Assembly (NCBI GenBank): GCA_963664115.2
Contig: CAXWPJ010000009.1
Span: forward strand, 608,001 to 672,000
DNA from: Terriglobia bacterium
GTDB taxonomy: Bacteria > Acidobacteriota > Terriglobia > 20CM-2-55-15
Direction: 5' to 3'
DNA: 64,000 bases
Both the position numbers and the translations under genes were made by a program. The first letter of the stretch is position 1. Each line of letters starts with the position of its first letter. Of this stretch, positions 2,828 to 54,133 are shown in pieces. The notes below the pieces were generated by a model. That model was not told where the DNA came from. It was given only the letters and a program-made list of their open reading frames with translations, and made no database searches.

Positions 2828-3942
2828 TGCTTCATATTGACAGGCGATTGATGGTAGCGGCTGTGGGATTGCTCCTGGCTGCATGCGGGACGACCGGTGA
2901 GCTCGATGATCAACCTGCCAGCACCGATCCGGGACCTGCGAGCTCGCCTGCCACCGCCCGGGCAGTTGAGCCTCACCCGGATGAAATCCACATTCAGAAT
3001 CCGAGACAACTGACCTTCGGCGGAGAGAACGCGGAGGCTTACTTTTCTTCGAACGGCGAGGACATCATCTTTCAATCCACACGCGACGCCAACCGGTGTG
3101 ACCAGCAGTACACAATGAAGACGGACGGGTCCGATCTGAGGCGGGTCAGCACGGGTGAAGGACGCACCACCTGCGGATACTACACGCCGGACGGGTTGAC
3201 GATCATCTACGCGTCGACTCATCTGGGAGCGCCGGAATGTCCGCCTGTTCCCGACCAATCGCTGGGTTACGTGTGGCCACTGTACCGCTCGTTCGACATC
3301 TTTGCGGCGAACGCGGACGGCACAGGCCTCCGCCGACTCACTGATGCCGATGGATACGACGCCGAGGGAACGGTCTCTCCCGACGGCGAGAAAATAGTCT
3401 TCACCTCGACACGAGACGGTGACCTCGACATCTACACGATGAATCTCGATGGCAGCGAGCAGACCCGATTGACCGATGAACTCGGTTATGACGGGGGCCC
3501 GTTCTTCTCGCCCGACAGTCAGTGGATCGTCTACCGGGCCAGTCATCCCACCGACTCCGGAGAAGTCGCTCAATATGAAGAATTGATAGCACAGGACCTG
3601 GTCCAGCCGGACAATCTCGAAGTCTGGATCATGAGGGCGGACGGGAGCGAAAAGCGCCAGATAACCTCTTATGGAGGCGCCAACTGGGCGCCGTATTTCC
3701 ATCCGAGCGGTGAAAAGATCATTTTCGCGTCAGATATGGACAACTTGAGCCCGCGAGTTCCCAACTTCGAGCTCTATATGGTCAATATCGACGGCACGGG
3801 CCTCGAGCGTCTGACCTTCGATGACTCATTCGACGGATTCCCCATTTTCAGCGCGGACGGCTCGCAGCTGTTATGGGCATCGAATCGATTTGCCGAGAAT
3901 GAGGGCAACACGAACGTTTTCATAGCCGACTGGGTGGAATAG
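2827..3942 (+). CDS. TolB-like PD40 beta-propeller lipoprotein
   Basis: Lipobox LLAAC; repeated SPDGxKIVFxS and RLT motifs. Confidence 0.88.
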   Translation: MLHIDRRLMVAAVGLLLAACGTTGELDDQPASTDPGPASSPATARAVEPHPDEIHIQNPRQLTFGGENAEAYFSSNGEDIIFQSTRDANRCDQQYTMKTDGSDLRRVSTGEGRTTCGYYTPDGLTIIYASTHLGAPECPPVPDQSLGYVWPLYRSFDIFAANADGTGLRRLTDADGYDAEGTVSPDGEKIVFTSTRDGDLDIYTMNLDGSEQTRLTDELGYDGGPFFSPDSQWIVYRASHPTDSGEVAQYEELIAQDLVQPDNLEVWIMRADGSEKRQITSYGGANWAPYFHPSGEKIIFASDMDNLSPRVPNFELYMVNIDGTGLERLTFDDSFDGFPIFSADGSQLLWASNRFAENEGNTNVFIADWVE

Positions 3943-21474: not shown

Positions 21475-22302
21475 ATGAGCTTTTCAGTAGTTACGAACCT
21501 GTCCTCGATTAACGCCCAGGCCACTTTGGAAGGTACCCAGATGGGATTGCAGCGGACTTTGGCCCGCTTGACATCCGGCTTGCGTATCAACAGCTCTGCC
21601 GACGACGCCGCCGGCCTGGCCGTGGCCAACCGCCACAAATTGGACAACACCGGCCTGACCGTCGGTATCCGGAGTGCGAATGACGCCATCAGCAAGCTGC
21701 AGATCGAAGACGGCGCGTTGAACAACATCGCCTCGTTACTCGATCGCGCTTTGACTCTGGCCAGCCAGGCGGCTTCGGACACCTTCACCGGTTCTCGGGC
21801 GACCCTGGATGCCGAGTTCCAGTCGGTGCTCGCCGAAATCACCCGAAACGCGCAGGCTGCCGGCATCGAAACCGGCAATGCGAACCTGAACGCACGGTCG
21901 GTTTTCGTTGGGAACACCCAGACCAGCACCTCCGCCAGCGTTACCTATGTTTCGTTTGCTCTGACCACAGCGGCCGACGCTCAGGGTCTGGGAGTCAGCA
22001 CGCAGAACATCACCAACCAGGCCAATGCCGCAGCCGCCATCTCAAGTATTCAGACAGCCGTCGGTAGCCTGGGTACAGTTCAGGGCCGCGTGGGTGCGGC
22101 GATGAACCGCTTGAGTTTTGCGGTTTCACAGGCGCAAACGATGTCGGTCAGTGTGCGGGCTTCGGAATCCCGAATCCGTGACGCCAACATCGCTGAGGAA
22201 GCGGCAGCATTGACGAAGTTCAACATCCTGACCCAGAGCGGTTTGGCCGCGCTGTCTCAGGCGAACGCTTCGTCCCAGTCCGTTCTTCAGCTACTCCGGT
22301 AA
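21475..22302 (+). CDS. fliC: Flagellin (short, 275 aa)
   Basis: RLTSGLRINSSADDAAGL; SRIRDANIAEE...LSQAN. Confidence 0.96.
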   Translation: MSFSVVTNLSSINAQATLEGTQMGLQRTLARLTSGLRINSSADDAAGLAVANRHKLDNTGLTVGIRSANDAISKLQIEDGALNNIASLLDRALTLASQAASDTFTGSRATLDAEFQSVLAEITRNAQAAGIETGNANLNARSVFVGNTQTSTSASVTYVSFALTTAADAQGLGVSTQNITNQANAAAAISSIQTAVGSLGTVQGRVGAAMNRLSFAVSQAQTMSVSVRASESRIRDANIAEEAAALTKFNILTQSGLAALSQANASSQSVLQLLR

Positions 22303-25035: not shown

Positions 25036-25051
25036 CCAGCACGGATGCTGG
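25036..25051 (+). promoter_or_regulatory. CsrA-type GGA hairpin in the flagellin 2 leader
   Basis: CCAGCA-CGGA-TGCTGG, plus ACGGAGG at the SD. Confidence 0.65.
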
Positions 25052-25077
25052 TTTCCAAAATCACGGAGGATTATTCA

Positions 25078-25908
25078 ATGAGTTTTTCAGTAGTCACCAA
25101 CCTTGCATCCATCAACGCACAAGCGACTCTCCAGGGAACCCAGATGGGTCTTCAACGAACACTGGCGCGCCTGACTTCGGGATTGCGCATCAACAGCGCG
25201 GCCGATGACGCCGCCGGCCTCGCCGTTGCGAACCGCCACAAGCTGGATAACACGGGTCTGACTATCGGTATCCGGAGTGCCAACGACGCGATCAGCAAAT
25301 TGCAGATCGAAGACGGTGCGCTCAGCAACATCGCTTCGTTGCTGGACCGGGCCCTGACTCTGGCCAGCCAGGCCGCTTCGGACACCTTCACGGGTTCCCG
25401 CGCAACCCTGGATGCCGAGTTCCAGTCGGTCTTATCGGAGATCACCCGAAACGCGACGGCCGCCGGTATCGAGACGGGCAATACCAATTTGAGTGCCCGG
25501 TCGGTGTTTGTCGGAAACACGACGACCAACACGTCGGCGAGCGTGACCTACGTTTCGTTTGCACTCACGACTGCGGTCGACGCTACAGGACTGGGTGTCA
25601 GCACGCAGGACATCACGAGCCAGGCCAATGCGGCGACCGCCATCTCGGCCATCCAGGCCGCGGTCGGAAATCTGGGAACGGTTCAGGGGCGTGTCGGTGC
25701 GGCAATGAACCGACTGAGTTTCGCCATTTCCCAGGCGCAGACGATGTCGGTCAGTGTCCGGGCATCGGAGTCTCGGATCCGTGATGCCAACATCGCTGAG
25801 GAAGCGGCAGCACTGACGAAGTTCAACATCCTCACCCAGAGTGGTTTGGCCGCTCTGAGTCAGGCGAACCAGTCGGCGCAGTCCGTATTGCAGCTACTCC
25901 GGCAGTAG
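25078..25908 (+). CDS. fliC: Flagellin, second paralog
   Basis: Near-identical protein to 21475..22302; ATG 25078 after GGAGG. Confidence 0.96.
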   Translation: MSFSVVTNLASINAQATLQGTQMGLQRTLARLTSGLRINSAADDAAGLAVANRHKLDNTGLTIGIRSANDAISKLQIEDGALSNIASLLDRALTLASQAASDTFTGSRATLDAEFQSVLSEITRNATAAGIETGNTNLSARSVFVGNTTTNTSASVTYVSFALTTAVDATGLGVSTQDITSQANAATAISAIQAAVGNLGTVQGRVGAAMNRLSFAISQAQTMSVSVRASESRIRDANIAEEAAALTKFNILTQSGLAALSQANQSAQSVLQLLRQ

Positions 25909-26089: not shown

Positions 26090-26314
26090 CTATGAGGAGT
26101 GCTCCCCGCCTTTCGAACGCGAAAGCTCGTTTTCTGCTGTTGCGAGTCGATCCCTCTTAGTCGATAGTTCCTTATAGACCAACGACAGCCGCTTCCGTTC
26201 AGTCATCAGTTCCTGCTCCAGGGCTGCCAGCCGCTCTCTTTCAATTGATAAGTCCTGCTTCAGTTCGTCGACCCTGGCACTCACGCCGGTGAAATGGCCC
26301 GGGACATCCGGCAA
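26090..26314 (-). CDS. Coiled-coil hypothetical protein
   Basis: 74-aa ORF with heptad pattern; start codon uncertain. Confidence 0.4.
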
Positions 26315-26458
26315 TCCGACATCCTCGAAGGAGTCCTTAGCGGTTTGATTCGTTTTCGCCCTGAATGTAGCCTCAAGAAACCCCCGTCCGAAGCGTCGGT
26401 CGGGCTCTATATGACAACCTTCGGCCCATTCGTTCCAGGCATTGATAAAGACAAATCG

Positions 26459-27843
26459 GAGTTATTGTCAAAAGTGGTGTTTAGGAGATTGATTCAAGCG
26501 GCGGCCTGATCGACTTGTGTCGCTTCGACACCATCGTTGAATTTCACTCCGATGATTACCTTGCTCAGATCATCGAATCCTCGTAATCGTCGCCAATTGT
26601 TCTCAGCGCACTGGCCCAGTTTGAACATCATGTGCAGCATGCCATCCCGTGTCAGGCAACCTCTGGATCGCTTCGTTCGGTGTCGAATGGTGGCAAAGGT
26701 CGACTCAATGGGATTCGTCGTTCTGATGCTCTGCCAGTGCTTGGCCGGAAAGTCGTAAAAGGCCAGCAGTTCCTCTCTGTCTTTCTGCAGGCAGAGTGTG
26801 GCTTTCGGATACTTCGGTTCATAGGTTTCAATGAACAAGTCGAATGCCTTCTCGGCGTCTGCCTTCGTCTCGGCCTGCCAGATCGAGTGCAGGGCCTGTT
26901 TCGCCTTCGCCTGGACCGACTTGGGCAGGCAGTTGAGGACGTTCATGACTTTGTGCATCCAGCAACGTTGTTGACGTGTCTCGGGATAGATTTCCTCCAG
27001 TGCGGCCCAGAACCCCATCGCACCGTCACCGATGGCCAACTTCGGAACATTCATCCCACGGGACTTCAGCTTCAACAAGACCTCGCGCCAACTCTGTGTC
27101 GATTCCCGTACACCGTCTTCGATCGCCAGGAAACGCTTCTCTCCGCGTTCATTCACGCCGATCACGACCAATGCACACAACTTGGTTTGTTCCGCCCGAA
27201 GTCCGCTGTAGATGCCGTCGGCCCAGACATAGACCCAGCGATCTGCATCCAAACGCTCCTCGCATCCGAGGCGGTACTGTTCGCCCCAAACCTGTTTCAA
27301 CCGCGATACCGTGCTCGCCGACAGACCCTGCGCCTGGGGACCGACAAGAACTTTTAGGGCCTCACCCATCTCGCCGCTGGAAACGCCTTTCAAATACAAC
27401 CACGGCACCGCTGCTTCCAGCGACTTCGTCTTCCGAATGTACGGTGGTACCAGGGCCGATCGGAACGTCACAGCTTCGCCCGTCTTGGCACGGACCTTCG
27501 GGATTTGGACTGTTACCGGACCCAATCCCGTCTGCAGTTCGCGTTCCGGCAGATAACCGTTGCGTACCACCCCGGCGTTTCCTGTCTCAGTTCGCCGGCC
27601 ACCGTGCTGGGATAGCAGCTCTGCCAATTCGGCTTCCACTGCGCGTTGGATCAGTTGCTGTGCCCCAACTCGTAGTAGTTCTGTTACTGGATCCTCAATC
27701 GTTTCTCGACCTTCCGGTCCATTCACGTTACTCTTGCTCACAGTGGCGTATCTCCTATGGTTGCTTTGAAGTTTTGTCACAACAAATCAACCAGATACGC
27801 CGCTCTTATTCAATCCCTCAAACACCAGATTCGGTTATAACTT
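26459..27843 (-). mobile_element. IS256 family insertion sequence (~1385 bp)
   Basis: Imperfect terminal IRs GAGTTATTGTCAAAAGTGGTGTTT and GAGTTATAACCGAATCTGGTGTTT; matching copies at 50.5 and 52-53 kb. Confidence 0.93.
26494..27741 (-). CDS. IS256 family DDE transposase
   Basis: WADGIY, DGVRES, IGDG, QRCWMHK, RTTNPIES; GTG start after AGGAG. Confidence 0.95.
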   Translation of the reverse strand: MSKSNVNGPEGRETIEDPVTELLRVGAQQLIQRAVEAELAELLSQHGGRRTETGNAGVVRNGYLPERELQTGLGPVTVQIPKVRAKTGEAVTFRSALVPPYIRKTKSLEAAVPWLYLKGVSSGEMGEALKVLVGPQAQGLSASTVSRLKQVWGEQYRLGCEERLDADRWVYVWADGIYSGLRAEQTKLCALVVIGVNERGEKRFLAIEDGVRESTQSWREVLLKLKSRGMNVPKLAIGDGAMGFWAALEEIYPETRQQRCWMHKVMNVLNCLPKSVQAKAKQALHSIWQAETKADAEKAFDLFIETYEPKYPKATLCLQKDREELLAFYDFPAKHWQSIRTTNPIESTFATIRHRTKRSRGCLTRDGMLHMMFKLGQCAENNWRRLRGFDDLSKVIIGVKFNDGVEATQVDQAAA

Positions 27844-28797
27844 GAGTTCATTCGAAGAAATCCGACTTACAAGAAAGAACAAGCATGGTTCGTCGATCGC
27901 AGAGCTGATTGGTTCGACAAGCACGGAATCGATCTCACTCGAATCTGGCCCGGGGATATCGACGATGCTGATAAATTCGTCCAGGCGCACCTCCATTCGG
28001 ACGACGAGATCTTGGACTGGCGTCTCGGTGTCGACGCCGACCGTGAGGCGATCCACCAGAAGTGGGGAGTAAAGTGGCCGTTCGATCCCGATCTATCCCT
28101 TCCAGCCAGCCGCATAAACCCCGGGAACATCTCGATTCCAGATTGTTTGGATGCAGTGCCGGTCGATGAAGATGTGTATTTCGACGGTGAATCTGCCTCG
28201 GACCGCGCTCGACAGATTCGATCCGACCTGCGGACACATCGGCAACACATCAAGATCCTTCCGACTGACCATCCTGGCCAACCCGGGCCGAACGGGACGT
28301 GGCGTTCCGTTGCGTATCAGATTGGACGTGCTTTGACTTGCTACCTCGGAGATATGGCACCCGACAACTTTCTCGGTTCCAGGATCGTGATGGACGTAGA
28401 AGGTGAGTCACTCGTGATACGGAAAGTCAATTTACCCGGCGACGCCCCCAGCGACATTAGATCAAGCGAGTTTAAGGTCGATCCGAGTCTTGGACGGCTC
28501 GGAAACTACCGACGTTTCAATGAATACATGGAAACTTTCAGCTGGCCCGACGATGACGCCCGTTTCTTCAAGCCATGGAACCCGGTTCCATTGGAAACGT
28601 ACGAGGGCTATCTCCGAGTATGGGACACCCGTAAGCTCAACCCTGACGTCAATTTTGCCGAGATCGCACGGCGACTCGACGGGGACGAATACGCTAAAGA
28701 ATGGCGGCGTGAATCTCTAAGGAAACAGGCTGCCCGCCAGCACCGGAAAGCTCAGGAACTAATCGAAGGCGGCTTTCTCGAGATCCACTAATCCAGC

Positions 28798-28868
28798 CGG
28801 ACATCTGCCGTACACACCCCCTGTACCGCAGATGTCCGTTGACCTTTCCCACCTTGCCGAATTAAATC
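28798..28868 (+). promoter_or_regulatory. Inverted repeat abutting a sigma70-type promoter
   Basis: CGGACATCTGC.GTACA-N7-TGTAC.GCAGATGTCCG, then TTGACC-N17-TTAAAT. Confidence 0.55.
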
Positions 28869-28874
28869 GTATGT

Positions 28875-29096
28875 ATGCAGAACACAGCAGCCACGATTCC
28901 ATGCCCAACGTGCCGGCAGTCTCTTCGCGAGCAGCAAAGCAAGACCGGTAAACCGTATTTCATCTGTGGACCGTGCGGAGCTCAGATCTTTATCCGAATG
29001 CAATACGGAATCGATCTGTTGCACCAGACGGCCAGCGATCAGCAGCACGATCGGACAGAGAATCGGGGATTGGCCCATGCTGGGCCTGGAGTGTAA
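28875..29096 (+). CDS. Small zinc-ribbon protein
   Basis: CPTC-x17-CGPC in SKTGKPYFICGPCGAQIFIR. Confidence 0.7.
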   Translation: MQNTAATIPCPTCRQSLREQQSKTGKPYFICGPCGAQIFIRMQYGIDLLHQTASDQQHDRTENRGLAHAGPGV

Positions 29097-29109
29097 ATAA
29101 CGGGGAAAA

Positions 29110-29142
29110 TGAAAAACGGTGCGCGACAACGCACCGTTTTCA
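29110..29142. terminator. Terminator-like hairpin after the zinc-ribbon gene
   Basis: AAAACGGTGCG-CGACAA-CGCACCGTTTT. Confidence 0.7.
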
Positions 29143-29244
29143 GAGTTCTGAGGGCCAACCCGGTTAGGATCGGTAACAGAAATCAGTAGAAACCGAATTC
29201 TAGCACAGCAGCCTTCAGAGCTTCCCCATAAATAGCCCACAGCG

Positions 29245-29430
29245 GAACACCGTTAAGAACGGTTTCTGACGGTTTTCAGAACGGTTTTTTGAATTGTTTT
29301 GAATCTCGTTGGTTTTCGGAAAAACCGAAATCAAACCGTAGTTCTCTCGGAGTTCCCCTACGGGGAAACTTTTCACGGTGGAAACGGTTGATATTTTTCA
29401 AAATCGTTTCTAACGGAAATTAAACGGAAG
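29245..29430. repeat. AT-rich array of ACGG(TT/AA) direct and inverted repeats
   Basis: GAACGGTTT, GACGGTTTT, GAACGGTTTT, AAACCGT, AAACGGTT, AACGGAA, AAACGGAA. Confidence 0.65.
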
Positions 29431-29445
29431 GAGCGGAGTTTTTAA

Positions 29446-29886
29446 ATGCGAATCAAGATTCCTCTATCTGAAAAGACAGAACAGTTATTACCGACTGGCG
29501 ACTATGTGGCCGAAATCAACGAGGTCTCACCTGGCACCGCGAACACTGGAACCAAGTTCCTGAGAGTAGTCTTCGAGATCGTAGGACCGGATCATGAAGG
29601 CGCTCAGACGGATTGCCAGCTTTACCTAACCGAACGGGCAGCCTGGAAGCTGAACACGCTGCTCGCGGCAGCCGGAGTGGAACCCCAGGGCGACGAGATT
29701 GAGACGGCCGAACTTCTCGGATCGAAACTCCACATTCACGTCAACCAACCGCAGGACTCATCAGGGCAGCCAATGCGACCCGAAGTAACGAGTTTCAGAC
29801 GGTTGGACCCGACCCCGAACGGATCCGAACCGAACGGTCAACCGATTGAAAAACCGAAAATTACGGATGACGACGTTCCGTTCTGA
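29446..29886 (+). CDS. DUF669 family phage-type ssDNA-binding protein
   Basis: LLPTGDYVAEI...FLRVVFEI OB-fold pattern; SSB-like acidic tail DDDVPF; RBS AAGGAG. Confidence 0.8.
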   Translation: MRIKIPLSEKTEQLLPTGDYVAEINEVSPGTANTGTKFLRVVFEIVGPDHEGAQTDCQLYLTERAAWKLNTLLAAAGVEPQGDEIETAELLGSKLHIHVNQPQDSSGQPMRPEVTSFRRLDPTPNGSEPNGQPIEKPKITDDDVPF

Positions 29887-29956: not shown

Positions 29957-30146
29957 ATGCCTGTCCTCCGGCCCGGTTAACCATTCCACGAGTGGGCAAC
30001 GGGGTCTGGCCGACGACGACCCACGACGGCGAACGGCATGCTGGTGCCGGATGGATGGGCGGCCCGGGGGTCCCAGGGGGCAGCGCCCCTTGGTGACCAC
30101 TCGGACACGACGAGTGGAGCGATGGCCAGAACAAGGCGAAACCGGG

Positions 30147-30182
30147 CACACCGGGGGCTATTGCTAGTAAGCCCCCGGTGTG
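30147..30182. other. Candidate double-strand origin hairpin for rolling-circle replication
   Basis: 13-bp perfect stem CACACCGGGGGCT/AGCCCCCGGTGTG with loop ATTGCTAGTA, 23 bp before rep. Confidence 0.55.
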
Positions 30183-30205
30183 TCTCAAAACGGAAACGAA
30201 ACACG

Positions 30206-30826
30206 ATGAAACGGAACAAAACTCAACAAATCGAGACGTTCAAGGGAATCGACGATCCCGAGGAATCTCCGCAGTATGTGGGCGGGCAGTGGCGCGAAAG
30301 GATGAGTGGGGGAACCGACCTGAAAGTGGAAGCACATCCTCCACACAACCATGAAGCTCGGCAGCGCATGAACGCAGAAATTCCGGATGAAATGGGACCT
30401 TGGCTCGAAGGCCTTGCGCCCTGGGACTGGTTCTCGACCTATACGTTCAGCCGCCTTGCGACCGCCGAAGGCGCACACACGATGTTTCGGAAGCACCTCA
30501 AGTGGCTCGAACTGAAAGCGGGTCAACCCGTCTATGCGTTTCGTGCAGACGAGTACGGTGCGTTAAACGGTCGTTTTCACCTCCACGCACTGATCGGCAA
30601 TGTCGCGCGTTTAACCCCATGGTGTGGCGAGAAATTGCCACCTGGAACCTGGGGTCTTCCCTGTTGCGGGGTTCACGGATGGCCCTGCGGCCACGCTCGA
30701 GTGCTGCCCTACGATCCCGAGATCGGCGCCGGAGGCTACGTCGCCAAGTACATCACGAAGGAACTCGGCGACTTCGAATTGATTGGCTTCCCGGCGTCCC
30801 CTCAACCCGTACTTCAAAGTGGGTAA
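30206..30826 (+). CDS. HUH endonuclease, rolling-circle replication initiator (Rep)
   Basis: Motif I WFSTYTF, motif II FHLHALI, motif III YVAKY; start uncertain. Confidence 0.82.
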   Translation: MKRNKTQQIETFKGIDDPEESPQYVGGQWRERMSGGTDLKVEAHPPHNHEARQRMNAEIPDEMGPWLEGLAPWDWFSTYTFSRLATAEGAHTMFRKHLKWLELKAGQPVYAFRADEYGALNGRFHLHALIGNVARLTPWCGEKLPPGTWGLPCCGVHGWPCGHARVLPYDPEIGAGGYVAKYITKELGDFELIGFPASPQPVLQSG

Positions 30827-30830
30827 GCCG

Positions 30831-31457
30831 ATGTCAACAAAGCCGCGACATCAATCAGACCCGTTGTTGGACCCGGACGACGTCATCCAATGGCCTCCAA
30901 CCTCCGAGACAGATGAGCAGGCAGTTCTATTGGTAACGCCCACTCTGATTGAACGTCGTGCCGCCGTTGACGAGGATTTCCGTTCGCGGGTATTCGGGAC
31001 CGACCAAGCTGTCATGGATACGCTTGCCCGTGCAGCGATGGAAGCGGGCATGTCTCTGATGGATCTAATTCATTCGGAGCTTGGCAAGTCAAAGTCAGAC
31101 AGAATCACAACCGTTTTGAAGGAAACACTCAAGCGTATCTACGATGCCGAAAAACATCGCTTGGCGCGTCGACGGGAAGTCGAGCGGATCCGGAGATCGC
31201 GTCCGGGACGCGTCGTAATCAAAGGCCTCCCACTCAAACGATTCTACCGAGTCCGCCGAAGGTTGCTCGACAGTTGGTCCAACACGGAGCATTTTCTGAA
31301 CGAAGCGCAATGCGACCTAGAGCAGGAAAACGGACCACACGTGAAGCTTGTCACCATGTACCGGTACGGCGGACCAAGGATCAATGTGGTCGCCGTGTTC
31401 CAGGTCGATGCCCCTGAGGAGGTAGTTCGAAATGGCAAAGAAGAAACGGAAGGATAA
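30831..31457 (+). CDS. Hypothetical protein of the integrative element
   Basis: 208-aa ORF 4 bp after the rep stop; basic central helix. Confidence 0.65.
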   Translation: MSTKPRHQSDPLLDPDDVIQWPPTSETDEQAVLLVTPTLIERRAAVDEDFRSRVFGTDQAVMDTLARAAMEAGMSLMDLIHSELGKSKSDRITTVLKETLKRIYDAEKHRLARRREVERIRRSRPGRVVIKGLPLKRFYRVRRRLLDSWSNTEHFLNEAQCDLEQENGPHVKLVTMYRYGGPRINVVAVFQVDAPEEVVRNGKEETEG

Positions 31458-31611: not shown

Positions 31612-31860
31612 ATGATCGGCAAACCCATCGCACTCATCCAAGTCCCAAACCAGCGACTCTTTAGCGTCCGAGCCGCAGCCCAATACCTGGGGATCCATGA
31701 ACAGACTCTCCGAAAGCTAACGGAAGAGGGTGAGGTCCGGGCACGCCGATCAGGAAGCCGGCGCGTGTATGCGCTGGAGGATCTGGATTCCTACGTCGCA
31801 TCGCTTCCTGAGTGGTACGATGCCGGCGGCGAAGAATCCGGGACAGAAGGGAGGTCCTAG
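31612..31860 (+). CDS. Excisionase / HTH_17 DNA-binding protein
   Basis: FSVRAAAQYLGIHEQTLRKL...GEVRARR..SRRVY..EDLD. Confidence 0.85.
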   Translation: MIGKPIALIQVPNQRLFSVRAAAQYLGIHEQTLRKLTEEGEVRARRSGSRRVYALEDLDSYVASLPEWYDAGGEESGTEGRS

Positions 31861-32952
31861 ATGGGAATTCTTCGCAGGCGAGACCAATCCGGCGGTAACC
31901 GGATTGAACTCTCGAAGCGATGGCCGGACGGGTCCCGGTTCCGGCGTTACTTTCCAAACAAAACGATGGCAGCAAAGACGCTGGCCAGGATTGAAGAATC
32001 CATCGCCATGGGCACATGGCGCAAGCTCAAGGACGAGCTCAAACGTGGGATCGGAGACGATCTCACTATCAACCAATTGGCCGATCTTTACTTCGAATGC
32101 TACTGCAAGGTACAGAACAAACGACCCGAATTCAAGAAATACGCGCTGAAGCCGATCCGAGCCAAGCTCGGCAACGTTACGGTACGTTATCTACGTCGGG
32201 CAGACGTTTACGACTTTGTGCGGCAACGTTCGAAAGAGGTCGCGCCAGCAACGGTCAATCGAAGCGTGGGAGTGCTTAAGAACATGCTCACGTTCGCTCT
32301 GGATAACGAACTGATCGACCAACATCCCCTCATTCGGTTCCGCATGCTTCGCGAGGAGCCGAGGGCTATTCGCGTTCTAACGGTAGCCGAGGAACGTTGT
32401 TTGATCGATTCCATCGCTAACCCAACGATCGCCAGTTACGTTGCAATCCTGGGTGAAACCGGACTCCGCAAGGAGGAAGGGCTGAGTCTACGTTGGGCAA
32501 ACGTTAATCTGGTCGATCGAATGCTTTCGGTGGAACATACCAAGAGCGGTCGTCCACGTTACGTCCCCTTATCTGAGTTTGCGATCGAGCACCTTGGATC
32601 GTTGGTCCGACTGATCGATTGTCCCTATGTGTTCGTTAATCTCAAGACTGGCACCCGATGGAACGATCCGCGGGAGCCGTTTGAGGCCGGTAAGGAGAAA
32701 GCCGGCCTCTCCTGGGTCGGATTCCATGATCTGAGGCGCTACCGGGCGACTCAGTGGGTCCGCCAGGGGGTCGATCTCAAGACGGTGCAGGAACTATTGG
32801 GTCATGCCGACATTCAAACCACGATGCGGTATGCCCATTTCTCACCGGACCATGCCATTCAGAAAATCCGTTCCGTACAGCGATCTGAACAAGAAAACTG
32901 GGAGTTGGAGCGGGCGAAAAGCGGGAGGCGAATCCGAAGTGAGAGTCTTTGA
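31861..32952 (+). CDS. Tyrosine recombinase (phage integrase family)
   Basis: TGLRKEE, TKSG, FHDLRR, LLGH, TTMRY catalytic R-K-H-R-H-Y. Confidence 0.95.
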   Translation: MGILRRRDQSGGNRIELSKRWPDGSRFRRYFPNKTMAAKTLARIEESIAMGTWRKLKDELKRGIGDDLTINQLADLYFECYCKVQNKRPEFKKYALKPIRAKLGNVTVRYLRRADVYDFVRQRSKEVAPATVNRSVGVLKNMLTFALDNELIDQHPLIRFRMLREEPRAIRVLTVAEERCLIDSIANPTIASYVAILGETGLRKEEGLSLRWANVNLVDRMLSVEHTKSGRPRYVPLSEFAIEHLGSLVRLIDCPYVFVNLKTGTRWNDPREPFEAGKEKAGLSWVGFHDLRRYRATQWVRQGVDLKTVQELLGHADIQTTMRYAHFSPDHAIQKIRSVQRSEQENWELERAKSGRRIRSESL

Positions 32953-32979
32953 GAGGCGTAAAAGGGCTGTAACTCGTTA

Positions 32980-33063
32980 TGCCGAAAAGAAGATTCGAAC
33001 TTCCACGGGGTTGCCCCCACTAGATTCTGAGTCTAGCGCGTCTGCCAGTTCCGCCATTTCGGC
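32980..33063 (-). tRNA. tRNA-Leu(CAG)
   Basis: GCCGAAA acceptor, CTAGA-CTCAGAA-TCTAG anticodon arm, long variable arm, TTCGAAT loop; no encoded CCA. Confidence 0.95.
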
Positions 33064-50088: not shown

Positions 50089-50465
50089 CGGTCACCGGTC
50101 CCAAACATCCCCGTACCTCCCCCTTGACCCCTGCAAGACGACGTAATAGCATCGCGCCTTCATTACTAAATCGCTGATTTACTACAAGGGAGGAAGTTCA
50201 ATGTCCATAGCACGCACGAGCGCGGTGTCGATTGCGCTGCTGGTCGTAGGGATAGCACTTGCGCCTGTGGCAAACGGACAAATGTTTCAGGATGGGTCCA
50301 AGGACGCCACTGTGATCAAGCGGAGTAACGAGTTATAACCGAATCTGGTGTTTGAGGGATTGAATAAGAGCGGCGTATCTGGTTGATTTGTTGTGACAAA
50401 ACTTCAAAGCAACCATAGGAGATACGCCACTGTGAGCAAGAGTAACGTGAATGGACCGGAAGGTC

Positions 50466-51847
50466 GAGTTATAACCGAATCTGGTGTTTGAGGGATTGAA
50501 TAAGAGCGGCGTATCTGGTTGATTTGTTGTGACAAAACTTCAAAGCAACCATAGGAGATACGCCACTGTGAGCAAGAGTAACGTGAATGGACCGGAAGGT
50601 CGAGAAACGATTGAGGATCCAGTAACAGAACTACTACGAGTTGGGGCACAGCAACTGATCCAACGCGCAGTGGAAGCCGAATTGGCAGAGCTGCTATCCC
50701 AGCACGGTGGCCGGCGAACTGAGACAGGAAACGCCGGGGTGGTACGCAACGGTTATCTGCCGGAACGCGAACTGCAGACGGGATTGGGTCCGGTAACAGT
50801 CCAAATCCCGAAGGTCCGTGCCAAGACGGGCGAAGCTGTGACGTTCCGATCGGCCCTGGTACCACCGTACATTCGGAAGACGAAGTCGCTGGAAGCAGCG
50901 GTGCCGTGGTTGTATTTGAAAGGCGTTTCCAGCGGCGAGATGGGTGAGGCCCTAAAAGTTCTTGTCGGTCCCCAGGCGCAGGGTCTGTCGGCGAGCACGG
51001 TATCGCGGTTGAAACAGGTTTGGGGCGAACAGTACCGCCTCGGATGCGAGGAGCGTTTGGATGCAGATCGCTGGGTCTATGTCTGGGCCGACGGCATCTA
51101 CAGCGGACTTCGGGCGGAACAAACCAAGTTGTGTGCATTGGTCGTGATCGGCGTGAATGAACGCGGAGAGAAGCGTTTCCTGGCGATCGAAGACGGTGTA
51201 CGGGAATCGACACAGAGTTGGCGCGAGGTCTTGTTGAAGCTGAAGTCCCGTGGGATGAATGTTCCGAAGTTGGCCATCGGTGACGGTGCGATGGGGTTCT
51301 GGGCCGCACTGGAGGAAATCTATCCCGAGACACGTCAACAACGTTGCTGGATGCACAAAGTCATGAACGTCCTCAACTGCCTGCCCAAGTCGGTCCAGGC
51401 GAAGGCGAAACAGGCCCTGCACTCGATCTGGCAGGCCGAGACGAAGGCAGACGCCGAGAAGGCATTCGACTTGTTCATTGAAACCTATGAACCGAAGTAT
51501 CCGAAAGCCACACTCTGCCTGCAGAAAGACAGAGAGGAACTGCTGGCCTTTTACGACTTTCCGGCCAAGCACTGGCAGAGCATCAGAACGACGAATCCCA
51601 TTGAGTCGACCTTTGCCACCATTCGACACCGAACGAAGCGATCCAGAGGTTGCCTGACACGGGATGGCATGCTGCACATGATGTTCAAACTGGGCCAGTG
51701 CGCTGAGAACAATTGGCGACGATTACGAGGATTCGATGATCTGAGCAAGGTAATCATCGGAGTGAAATTCAACGATGGTGTCGAAGCGACACAAGTCGAT
51801 CAGGCCGCCGCTTGAATCAATCTCCTAAACACCACTTTTGACAATAA
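50466..51847 (+). mobile_element. IS256 family element, copy 2 (preceded by a duplicated 136-bp left end from 50330)
   Basis: Matches 26459..27843 in reverse orientation. Confidence 0.88.
50568..51815 (+). CDS. IS256 family transposase
   Basis: Protein identical to copy 1. Confidence 0.93.
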   Translation: MSKSNVNGPEGRETIEDPVTELLRVGAQQLIQRAVEAELAELLSQHGGRRTETGNAGVVRNGYLPERELQTGLGPVTVQIPKVRAKTGEAVTFRSALVPPYIRKTKSLEAAVPWLYLKGVSSGEMGEALKVLVGPQAQGLSASTVSRLKQVWGEQYRLGCEERLDADRWVYVWADGIYSGLRAEQTKLCALVVIGVNERGEKRFLAIEDGVRESTQSWREVLLKLKSRGMNVPKLAIGDGAMGFWAALEEIYPETRQQRCWMHKVMNVLNCLPKSVQAKAKQALHSIWQAETKADAEKAFDLFIETYEPKYPKATLCLQKDREELLAFYDFPAKHWQSIRTTNPIESTFATIRHRTKRSRGCLTRDGMLHMMFKLGQCAENNWRRLRGFDDLSKVIIGVKFNDGVEATQVDQAAA

Positions 51848-51999
51848 ACGATTGAGGATCCAGTAACAGAACATTACTGAGGCAGTTATACGAGTTGATC
51901 TGGGCCCCAGGCACAGAGCAAGAGTAAACCGGATCCAAGGCGTAACAGAACTACTACGGTTGGGGCCAGCGTGGAAGCCGAATCCCGAAAGAAGTCAGA

Positions 52000-53200
52000 A
52001 TGGCAGAGCTGCTATCCCAGCACGGTGGCCGGCGAACTGAGACAGGAAACGCCGGGGTGGTTATAACCGAATCTGGTGTTTGAGGGACGCAACGGTTATC
52101 TGCCGGAACGCGAACTGCAGAGTTGGGGCGGGATTGGGTCCGGTAACAGTCCAAATCCCGAAGGTCCGTGCCAAGACGGGCGAAGCTGTGACGTTCCGAT
52201 CGGCCCTGGTACCACCGTACATTCGGAAGACGAAGTCGCTGGAAGCAGCGGTGCCGTGGTTGTATTTGAAAGGCGTTTCCAGCGGCGAGATGGGTGAGGC
52301 CCTAAAAGTTCTTGTCGGTCCCCAGGCGCAGGGTCTGTCGGCGAGCACGGTATCGCGGTTGAAACAGGTTTGGGGCGAACAGTACCGCCTCGGATGCGAG
52401 GAGCGTTTGGATGCAGATCGCTGGGTCTATGTCTGGGCCGACGGCATCTACAGCGGACTTCGGGCGGAACAAACCAAGTTGTGTGCATTGGTCGTGATCG
52501 GCGTGAATGAACGCGGAGAGAAGCGTTTCCTGGCGATCGAAGACGGTGTACGGGAATCGACACAGAGTTGGCGCGAGGTCTTGTTGAAGCTGAAGTCCCG
52601 TGGGATGAATGTTCCGAAGTTGGCCATCGGTGACGGTGCGATGGGGTTCTGGGCCGCACTGGAGGAAATCTATCCCGAGACACGTCAACAACGTTGCTGG
52701 ATGCACAAAGTCATGAACGTCCTCAACTGCCTGCCCAAGTCGGTCCAGGCGAAGGCGAAACAGGCCCTGCACTCGATCTGGCAGGCCGAGACGAAGGCAG
52801 ACGCCGAGAAGGCATTCGACTTGTTCATTGAAACCTATGAACCGAAGTATCCGAAAGCCACACTCTGCCTGCAGAAAGACAGAGAGGAACTGCTGGCCTT
52901 TTACGACTTTCCGGCCAAGCACTGGCAGAGCATCAGAACGACGAATCCCATTGAGTCGACCTTTGCCACCATTCGACACCGAACGAAGCGATCCAGAGGT
53001 TGCCTGACACGGGATGGCATGCTGCACATGATGTTCAAACTGGGCCAGTGCGCTGAGAACAATTGGCGACGATTACGAGGATTCGATGATCTGAGCAAGG
53101 TAATCATCGGAGTGAAATTCAACGATGGTGTCGAAGCGACACAAGTCGATCAGGCCGCCGCTTGAATCAATCTCCTAAACACCACTTTTGACAATAACTC
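52000..53200 (+). mobile_element. IS256 copy 3 with scrambled 5' end (truncated transposase to 53165)
   Basis: Matching 3' ~1070 bp with intact right IR ACAATAACTC; mosaic 5' part. Confidence 0.75.
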
Positions 53201-54133
53201 TATGCGACTGCCGAAGAACATTACGCGGCGTTGAAGGCCCAGGCCGAAGCGACGGGCGGCCCCACAGTGCACACACGGGAAACAATGCCGGAGTGGGATG
53301 GATGGTACGCCCGAGGGGCGATAGACGACCAGTGGATTTACGGTCGTGACCTCCAGACGGCCACCATGTTGTCGCTATTGACACCTGAATATCAGGAGCG
53401 CATGGCCCAGTTGACCTACCACGAAGCCGTAACCAATTCGCCCCAGTGGAACGCTTCGTTCTGCTATCCGGAAGGATTGGTCCGGTGGTGGGGGGAGTTC
53501 ACCCTCAGGGACATCGAAGTCATGGTGACGCCCTATCAGGTCCAGTTTTTGAGCGGCGCCAGTCACAACTTTCTCCGCAGGGTCCACGTCGGACGGGAAC
53601 ATGTACAACAGGTTCCGCAGTGGTTTGGCGAGACCATCGGATTCTGGAACGGAGATACGCTCGTCGCCTGGACAGCCAATTCCCTGGGGTGGACCATGTC
53701 GCATTCGATGTTCGAATACAGTAGTGCGATGGAGATCGTCGAAGTGCTCAGACCAAATCCAGATGGGAACGGACTCATCGTCGAGGCCACATTCTACGAT
53801 CCGGAGGCCTTCACTCGCCCGCTGCAAACGATAACTCCTTGGAATTTCAGGACGGGACTCGATGATCCGGACACAAGATACACGTGGCATGAGTGCCAGG
53901 TCGAGGGAACGATTGTCAACGGTCCGGATGGTAAGCCGACGCAGGTCCTGCCCTTTGAGGAACGTTACATTGATTTCTTTGGCCGTCCGTGGGCACTGAC
54001 ATGGGAAAGGTACTTCGAGCAAGGATGGGACAGGCCGAACAATTGACGACGGCTGTCAGCGAAAAAATCAAGAAGAGCCGGCCATCCGGCCACACGGAAT
54101 CTTCGATCAAGAGGACAGACTGCTTTTGAATTC

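Follow-up and report, generated by a model that had tools for sequence, protein, structure and literature searches.

The window, a stretch of 64,000 nucleotides corresponding to positions 608001-672000 of contig C9 of this genome assembly (G000), contains the end of a glycosyltransferase gene, an insertion sequence (IS), the larger part of a regulator gene and one side of a small integrated element. The features around the IS are the following.

26090-26458, minus strand: 3' end of a wbsX glycosyltransferase gene, a 123-aa open frame, with the 5' part from C9:33157 onward
26411-26458, plus strand: the 16-residue N-terminus joined to the regulator in the first-pass annotation, an antisense read-through of wbsX (summed BLOSUM score of -263 against nine homologue N-termini)
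26450-26458, plus strand: copy of the 9-bp target at which the IS entered wbsX, with its twin flanking the IS at C9:33157
26459-27843, minus strand: IS256-family element of 1385 bp with imperfect terminal inverted repeats and a T in place of C as last base
26494-27780, minus strand: IS256 transposase ORF (PF00872, E 6e-63; NF033543, E 2.5e-91)
27844-28791, plus strand: 3' 315 codons of a predicted 336-aa FseA/RovC-like (DUF6499-DUF2285) gene, with codons 1-21 at C9:31700-31762
27844-27852, plus strand: copy of the 9-bp target at which the IS entered the regulator gene (codons E-F-I), with its twin at C9:31763-31771
28798-28844, plus strand: candidate operator, a 17-bp inverted repeat (28798-28838) with 16 of 17 positions matching and a 7-nt loop, abutting TTGACC

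The IS belongs to the IS256 family, as it encodes a Mutator-type DDE transposase on the minus strand and has 33-bp imperfect terminal inverted repeats. BLAST against its own genome delineates a common core of 1384 bp. Directly behind this core, 54 of 56 right ends have a C, the window copy has a T and one other copy a G, so the IS is 1385 bp long and the span of 26459-27843 given in the first-pass annotation is exact. About 49-56 copies of this IS256 are present in the genome, where repeats of at least 400 bp total 616 kb out of 4.89 Mb. The genome is thus IS-riddled and has undergone an IS burst. Two more copies of the same IS256, nested or truncated, are located at 50456-53213 of the window, just behind the rRNA operon, and two other elements with ends reading CTAG occur in about 76 and about 27 genome copies.

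An exact 25-mer search identified 49 left ends of this IS in the genome, 26 with an exact 9-bp target duplication and 23 with none. The two flanks of the window copy are unlike each other (GACAAATCG and GAGTTCATT). The copy at C9:31772-33156 equals the window copy except for the last base and is bordered by the same two 9-mers in reversed order, which is the sole reciprocal flank swap among the 49 left ends. The window IS therefore has no matching target duplication, since its 9-bp flanks are exchanged with those of a copy 603 kb away.

Left of the C9:31772 copy, a frame of 24 codons starts at C9:31700, begins with MPRK and ends with WEFI. While WEFI closes this piece, EFIRRN opens the window piece, and the overlap between both is the 9-bp duplication. 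Together, they contain an N-terminal motif resembling AWEFLRRN, which served as criterion in PMC10359603, and the W of WEFIRR is residue 21 of the C9:31700 piece, likewise in six of nine homologues. The intact gene is, as read from these two pieces, 336 codons long, with the first 21 at C9:31700-31762, and the IS insertion point lies within its core WEF[LI]RRN motif, in agreement with the initial claim of inactivation by the IS. A scoring profile was built from nine homologues only; P0002 was left out as it is the very same protein, and P0009 because its match is an artefact of repeats. The join with the C9:31700 piece scores 160.9 bits over model positions 1-298, the join across the window IS 138.8 bits starting at model position 22, and the body alone 138.2 bits. 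The C9:31700 N-terminus thus adds 22.7 bits to the body, compared to 0.6 bit for the N-terminus taken from the window flank. It also tops the 98 candidate IS left-flank translations with a summed BLOSUM score of 223, followed by -8 for the next one and -263 for the window flank.

The first-pass annotation had proposed that deletion of the IS restores an FseA-type activator of 331 aa. The 331-codon frame is indeed open, but its start is wbsX antisense and the true start of the regulator is 603 kb away in the assembly. Because an in-frame ATG within 100 codons precedes any stop in 24 of the 49 left flanks, such an open frame is unremarkable and expected by chance. Deletion of the IS fuses two unrelated genes at this site, hence the regulator is not restored, and the 331-aa protein is a chance chimera that takes its 16-residue start from wbsX antisense. 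The same annotation had named an unrelated N-terminus in homologues as the observation that would speak against the rejoined protein, and the homologues do carry another N-terminus. The WEFLRRNPxY motif it reported is present in the true gene (WEFI / EFIRRN), but its own join lacks the W.

The IS was also suggested to be a reversible off-switch, excision of which would give a working 331-aa activator. Such a role is extremely improbable. The frame that opens upon IS deletion is compatible with it, and phase variation via clean excision of IS256, a rare event, is known in Staphylococcus (PMC11178275). However, the wbsX-antisense N-terminus adds no profile signal and is devoid of the conserved W, and the matching duplication on both sides by which a reversible IS256 switch is recognized is missing, with the in-frame ATG attributable to chance. 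Precise excision of IS256 depends on the duplicated target. Furthermore, no IS-free allele is found among the joints listed for the contigs of six runs, contigs being prone to drop rare variants, and the terminal base of the window copy is altered; this T is also present in contigs of runs X1, X3, and X4, of which X1 is possibly the source sample.

The downstream frame is, judged by its sequence, a genuine FseA/RovC-type gene, as the first-pass annotation had claimed. The body (27844-28791) matches PF10074 (DUF2285/RovC_DNA-bd) with 27.2 bits against a cut-off of 26.4, and with 29.2 bits in a whole-genome search, in which it is the single PF10074 match. PF20109 (DUF6499) matches neither of the split pieces; eight of nine intact homologues match it at E<0.1 and two of nine exceed the cut-off. 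A PDB sequence search with the family profile retrieved only RovC (6xz5; E 5.4e-4), covering both ends. For the 315-aa body, AlphaFold gives a model with a pLDDT of 68 and a poor middle part. The structural comparison recommended at first pass was run on this body and returned RovC as top match in both VIA-align (Z 7.5, rmsd 5.4 A, 142 residues aligned) and Foldseek (E 0.027, prob 0.96), although both results are below firm thresholds.

All 315 codons are open with no frameshift, confirming the single reading frame proposed earlier, and the +1 frameshift signal TTTC was not found behind the WG codons in the stretch checked, which sets the gene apart from the frameshifted FseA subtype. About 61% of 4709 FseA homologues need a frameshift and about 39% are single-ORF (PMC10359603), and single-ORF FseA variants are also described in PMC4755241; an in-frame FseA version is therefore not new. 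The initial matches in PMC10359603 include 266 outside alpha-, beta- and gammaproteobacteria, and the AWEFLRRN helix is reported there as structurally essential in FseA. With the insertion in this very motif, the gene is a dead member of a known regulator family, split by a commonplace event driven by an IS.

An expressed remnant, starting internally and acting as a lone DUF2285 antiactivator similar to QseM, is very unlikely. A 259-aa ORF from 28012 retains the DUF2285 part, QseM aligns to the body model with a Z of 5.6 (VIA-align), and the last 71 residues have a net charge of 0 (13 K+R, 13 D+E). Nevertheless, the PF10074 match is the only one in the genome, and a profile search found no intact DUF6499 protein elsewhere in it that could serve as target.

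The wbsX gene on the other side of the IS is split in the same way. The minus strand at 26333-26458 matches PF14307 (WbsX) positions 320-350 (E 3e-13), the DNA to the right of the distant IS copy (L001:13158-13826) matches positions 87-322, and both parts read continuously when joined via the shared 9-mer. In four out of four congeners, fliS, wbsX, and fliW are located within about 12 kb, with flagellin beside wbsX in three of the four, while in G000 the distance from fliS to fliW is 597 kb. The wbsX 5' part is truncated at L001:13826-14370 by an apparent remnant of another transposase gene, and the wbsX-fliW spacing is about 1 kb in G000 versus about 7 kb in the four congeners. Two flagellin genes (window 21475-22302 and 25045-25908) surround fliD, fliS, and an FlgN-like gene.

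Behind the regulator and its candidate operator, the integrated element continues with the following features.

28875-29096, plus strand: small Zn-ribbon protein, which relatives also keep immediately after the regulator
29446-29886, plus strand: DUF669 protein (PF05037, E 7e-5)
30038-30826, plus strand: likely rolling-circle (HUH-type) Rep (PF23343 REP_ORF2-G2P, E 4.9e-6, 27.2 bits, under the cut-off of 27.8)
30783-31457, plus strand: ORF without a convincing family match
31612-31860, plus strand: excisionase-like HTH_17 protein (PF12728, E 1.5e-10; TIGR01764)
31861-32952, plus strand: tyrosine integrase (PF00589, E 1.7e-26)
32969-33031, no strand assigned: att site of 63 bp overlapping the tRNA-Leu 3' half, with an exact duplicate at C9:26815-26877 (BLAST)
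32980-33063, minus strand: tRNA-Leu(CAG), the integration target

The att duplicate sits 4.9 kb upstream of the true N-terminus at C9:31700, which gives an element of 10,136 bp once the IS is subtracted. A presumed 14-nt motif of the tRNA end yielded nothing above chance as a guide to att; the site was located by BLAST. No relaxase, coupling protein or conjugation pilus genes occur among the main ORFs scanned between the att sites. The element is therefore no ICE and is non-conjugative, as initially claimed. Between the att duplicate and the true N-terminus (L001:7254-11314), it carries five intact cargo genes: DUF5131, TcmP, DuOB, and two DUF488 genes. In PADLOC, DUF5131 and TcmP match PDC-M30/M41, and DuOB and the two DUF488 genes match PDC-M45, which are candidate anti-phage systems, all with open frames. 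The contig depth of run X5 drops from 12 to 6.5 near L001:8840 (L001:8826-11799), suggesting a strain variant within the cargo. The AT-rich intergenic region at 29097-29445 of the window contains many AAACCG/AACGG repeats and an 11-bp hairpin and may be a replication origin. The host probably belongs to the Acidobacteriota, given ten matches over cut-off to TIGR03436 (an acidobacterial VWFA family) in G000 and none in 14 control genomes; a host outside Proteobacteria, as first claimed, is thus probable.

FseA binds an inverted repeat adjoining the -35 box of the excisionase promoter (PMC10359603). The repeat at 28798-28838 resembles this FseA-box layout, yet it may be a plain hairpin; a promoter scan made no call for it. 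No equivalent inverted repeat is present at the same place in the relatives L026 and L028. GTTAC/GTAAC repeats are located just upstream of the regulator in both relatives (L026:559-582; L028:2200-2235 and 3370-3395) and are putative binding sites.

A word-based search with the body alone found no homologues, and a HMMER search of 1.84 billion representatives found 11, including P0002 and P0009. A metagenome scan confirmed three loci (L026, L027, and L028) out of 38 pattern matches. Two of these, L026 and L027, encode the same protein (P0010), hence there are two independent contexts. In L026, the regulator is followed by genes for a Zn ribbon, a SpoVG-like protein, Rep_1, HTH_17, and an integrase, and in L027 the regulator is preceded by genes for a methylase, Vsr, and GmrSD. 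In L028, the order is regulator (P0016), Zn ribbon, a weak G2P-like Rep, HTH_17, integrase, and tRNA-Pro. The shared order with differing Rep genes indicates that the module recurs and that its Rep genes are interchangeable. Both intact relatives head the same small, predicted non-conjugative module, consisting of putative activator, Zn ribbon, Rep, excisionase, and integrase.

Related integrases have matches in 10 other genomes and adjoin tRNA-Leu in all seven loci fetched from them. The regulator gene is missing from all 13 further loci with an integrase or a Zn ribbon that were scanned, which counts against the generality of the module. It was not found with the family profile in 400 genomes of the class, and PF10074 occurs in five of 400 other genomes of the phylum (one over cut-off), with no close relative among these five. 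Searches of viral contigs, plasmids and phage records, and of GTDB contigs by pattern, confirmed no relatives. Small elements with a Zn ribbon and an integrase are also found in related genomes (L043, L044, L045, and L046), with other ORFs of 270-420 aa or a Rep in place of an FseA-like gene.

The flank swap may be genuine or a mis-assembly. It is seen in this assembly only, because short-read contigs cannot phase a repeat of 1385 bp. On both flanks of the window copy, contigs stop within the IS in four out of four runs from four studies; on the left flank of the C9:31772 copy they do so in three of four runs, with X14 barely covering the site. The runs labelled as sponge metagenome contained 12-23% of the words, X14 having only short, low-depth pieces on L001. 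With a mis-assembly, which we regard as rather unlikely, a plain IS insertion with its 9-bp duplication on both sides would be present and the assembler would have crossed two near-identical IS copies. The repetitive share of the assembly (616 kb of 4.9 Mb) and the inability of the available reads to phase the IS are in line with this, as is the fact that a single crossover alone leaves both products on one contig unexplained. A second reciprocal swap that could explain them was not found, the end definitions of the other IS families being rough.

Three observations point in the other direction. The ends of contigs share 6.6-16 kb with other contigs, a sign that long reads were used, which could cross 1.4 kb and hence the IS; matched flanks are kept in 26 of 49 copies; and the X5 contig depths pair as assembled, with 21-27 on both window flanks and 6-13 on both C9:31772 flanks, a weak hint. 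The start of C9 (C9:1-22929) is a 99.8-99.9% duplicate of 14 kb of contig C10 plus 7 kb of C4, which hints at structural variants or assembly overlap. A plasmid nature of the 602-kb segment is unlikely, as it carries five called tRNA genes. With a real swap and a mis-assembly alike, the product proposed at first pass is wrong and the gene is broken. In case of mis-assembly, the knockout stands, but the IS could on rare occasions excise precisely and so give back the true protein of 336 aa, though not the 331-aa chimera.

Taken together, we consider it probable that the frame in the window represents what is left of the 3' part of an FseA/RovC-type gene, which was cut by an IS256 in its core motif and is now 603 kb from its true start in the assembly. 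By analogy with its family, this gene likely encoded the activator of the 10-kb tRNA-Leu element. One IS256 insertion entered the regulator gene and another one wbsX in the flagellar cluster, after which homologous recombination between the two IS copies may have exchanged the flanks. This recombination would have separated attL, the cargo, and the first 21 codons from the regulator body, Zn ribbon, Rep, excisionase, integrase, and attR, and would have split the flagellar cluster as well. As in its family, the intact protein presumably dimerised on an inverted repeat beside a -35 box, possibly the one at 28798-28838, and activated the downstream genes via the excisionase. In its present state the gene cannot give this protein, and removal of the window IS alone would give a wbsX-antisense chimera with neither the conserved tryptophan nor the N-terminal helix. 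Several observations weigh against the activator role: the net charge of 0 over the C-terminal 71 residues, compared to the +7 reported for the FseA domain (although the last helix is K/R-rich), the lack of a PF20109 match on either piece, the moderate structural support, and the lack of the candidate operator in L026 and L028.

With repeats covering so much of the assembly, a neutral hit during the IS burst is the simplest cause of the knockout. A selected loss of the activator, locking the candidate anti-phage cargo into the chromosome, would be compatible with a remnant of a dead activator, but we consider such domestication unlikely. The open frames of the PDC-M30/M41 and PDC-M45 matches and the presence of the insertion in runs of four studies fit with it; these PDC models, however, are candidates only. 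Moreover, with this IS present about 49 times and other repeats in dozens of copies, such a hit requires no selection, and the burst accounts equally well for the knockout, with the neighbouring wbsX hit too.

The central proposal of a reversible master switch gated by the IS is thus false, and the lesson is that the flanks of an IS should be compared with those of its other copies before one ‘repairs’ a gene. The value of the locus is modest: it adds small elements with a likely rolling-circle Rep, here in a probable acidobacterium, to the large conjugative elements in which FseA/RovC-type regulators occur. Among the papers listed in literature searches, none deals with FseA-type genes in small non-conjugative elements, though the supplementary homologue table of PMC10359603 may hold cases. 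ICEclc BisDC, considered as another DUF2285 holder, was dropped, as the domain has 0 occurrences in PMC7423338. It is possible, though doubtful, that small non-conjugative elements which integrate at tRNA genes and replicate by rolling circle form a family in which a single-ORF FseA/RovC master switch controls an operon of Zn ribbon, Rep, excisionase, and integrase via an inverted repeat at the -35 box, with the switch destroyed and the anti-phage cargo frozen in the chromosome in this host. The intact relatives P0010 and P0016, together with the candidate operator, allow a simple test.

Small size, tRNA integration, an integrase, an excisionase and a Rep, candidate defence cargo, and the lack of virion genes are shared with phage satellites (P4-like, PICI, PICMI). 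Hallmarks of satellites are a primase and AlpA, in place of which the element has a likely HUH-type Rep and an FseA-like regulator; no helper was identified. The inactivation of a gene by an IS256-family insertion is reminiscent of phase variation in Staphylococcus epidermidis, where the target duplication is intact and revertants occur (PMC11178275), whereas here the flanks are swapped and no revertant is seen among the contigs listed. With FseA (msi172-msi171) of ICEMlSymR7A from Mesorhizobium japonicum, the regulator shares the WEF[LI]RRN helix, the WG motif behind it, and the C-terminal DUF2285 helix-turn-helix (PMC10359603, PMC4755241), and both elements are tRNA-integrated with an excisionase and a tyrosine integrase. 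In contrast to FseA, it is encoded in one frame with no +1 frameshift, has 336 aa with a longer middle part, and is broken and split. The element itself differs from ICEMlSymR7A in its 10-kb size, its likely rolling-circle Rep, and the lack of conjugation genes, and no QseM or quorum-sensing genes were seen. RovC of Yersinia (PDB 6xz5), the sole PDB sequence match and the top structure match, is a single ORF like the regulator described here, but RovC turns on type VI secretion (PMC10359603), whereas the neighbours of this regulator are replication and excision genes.
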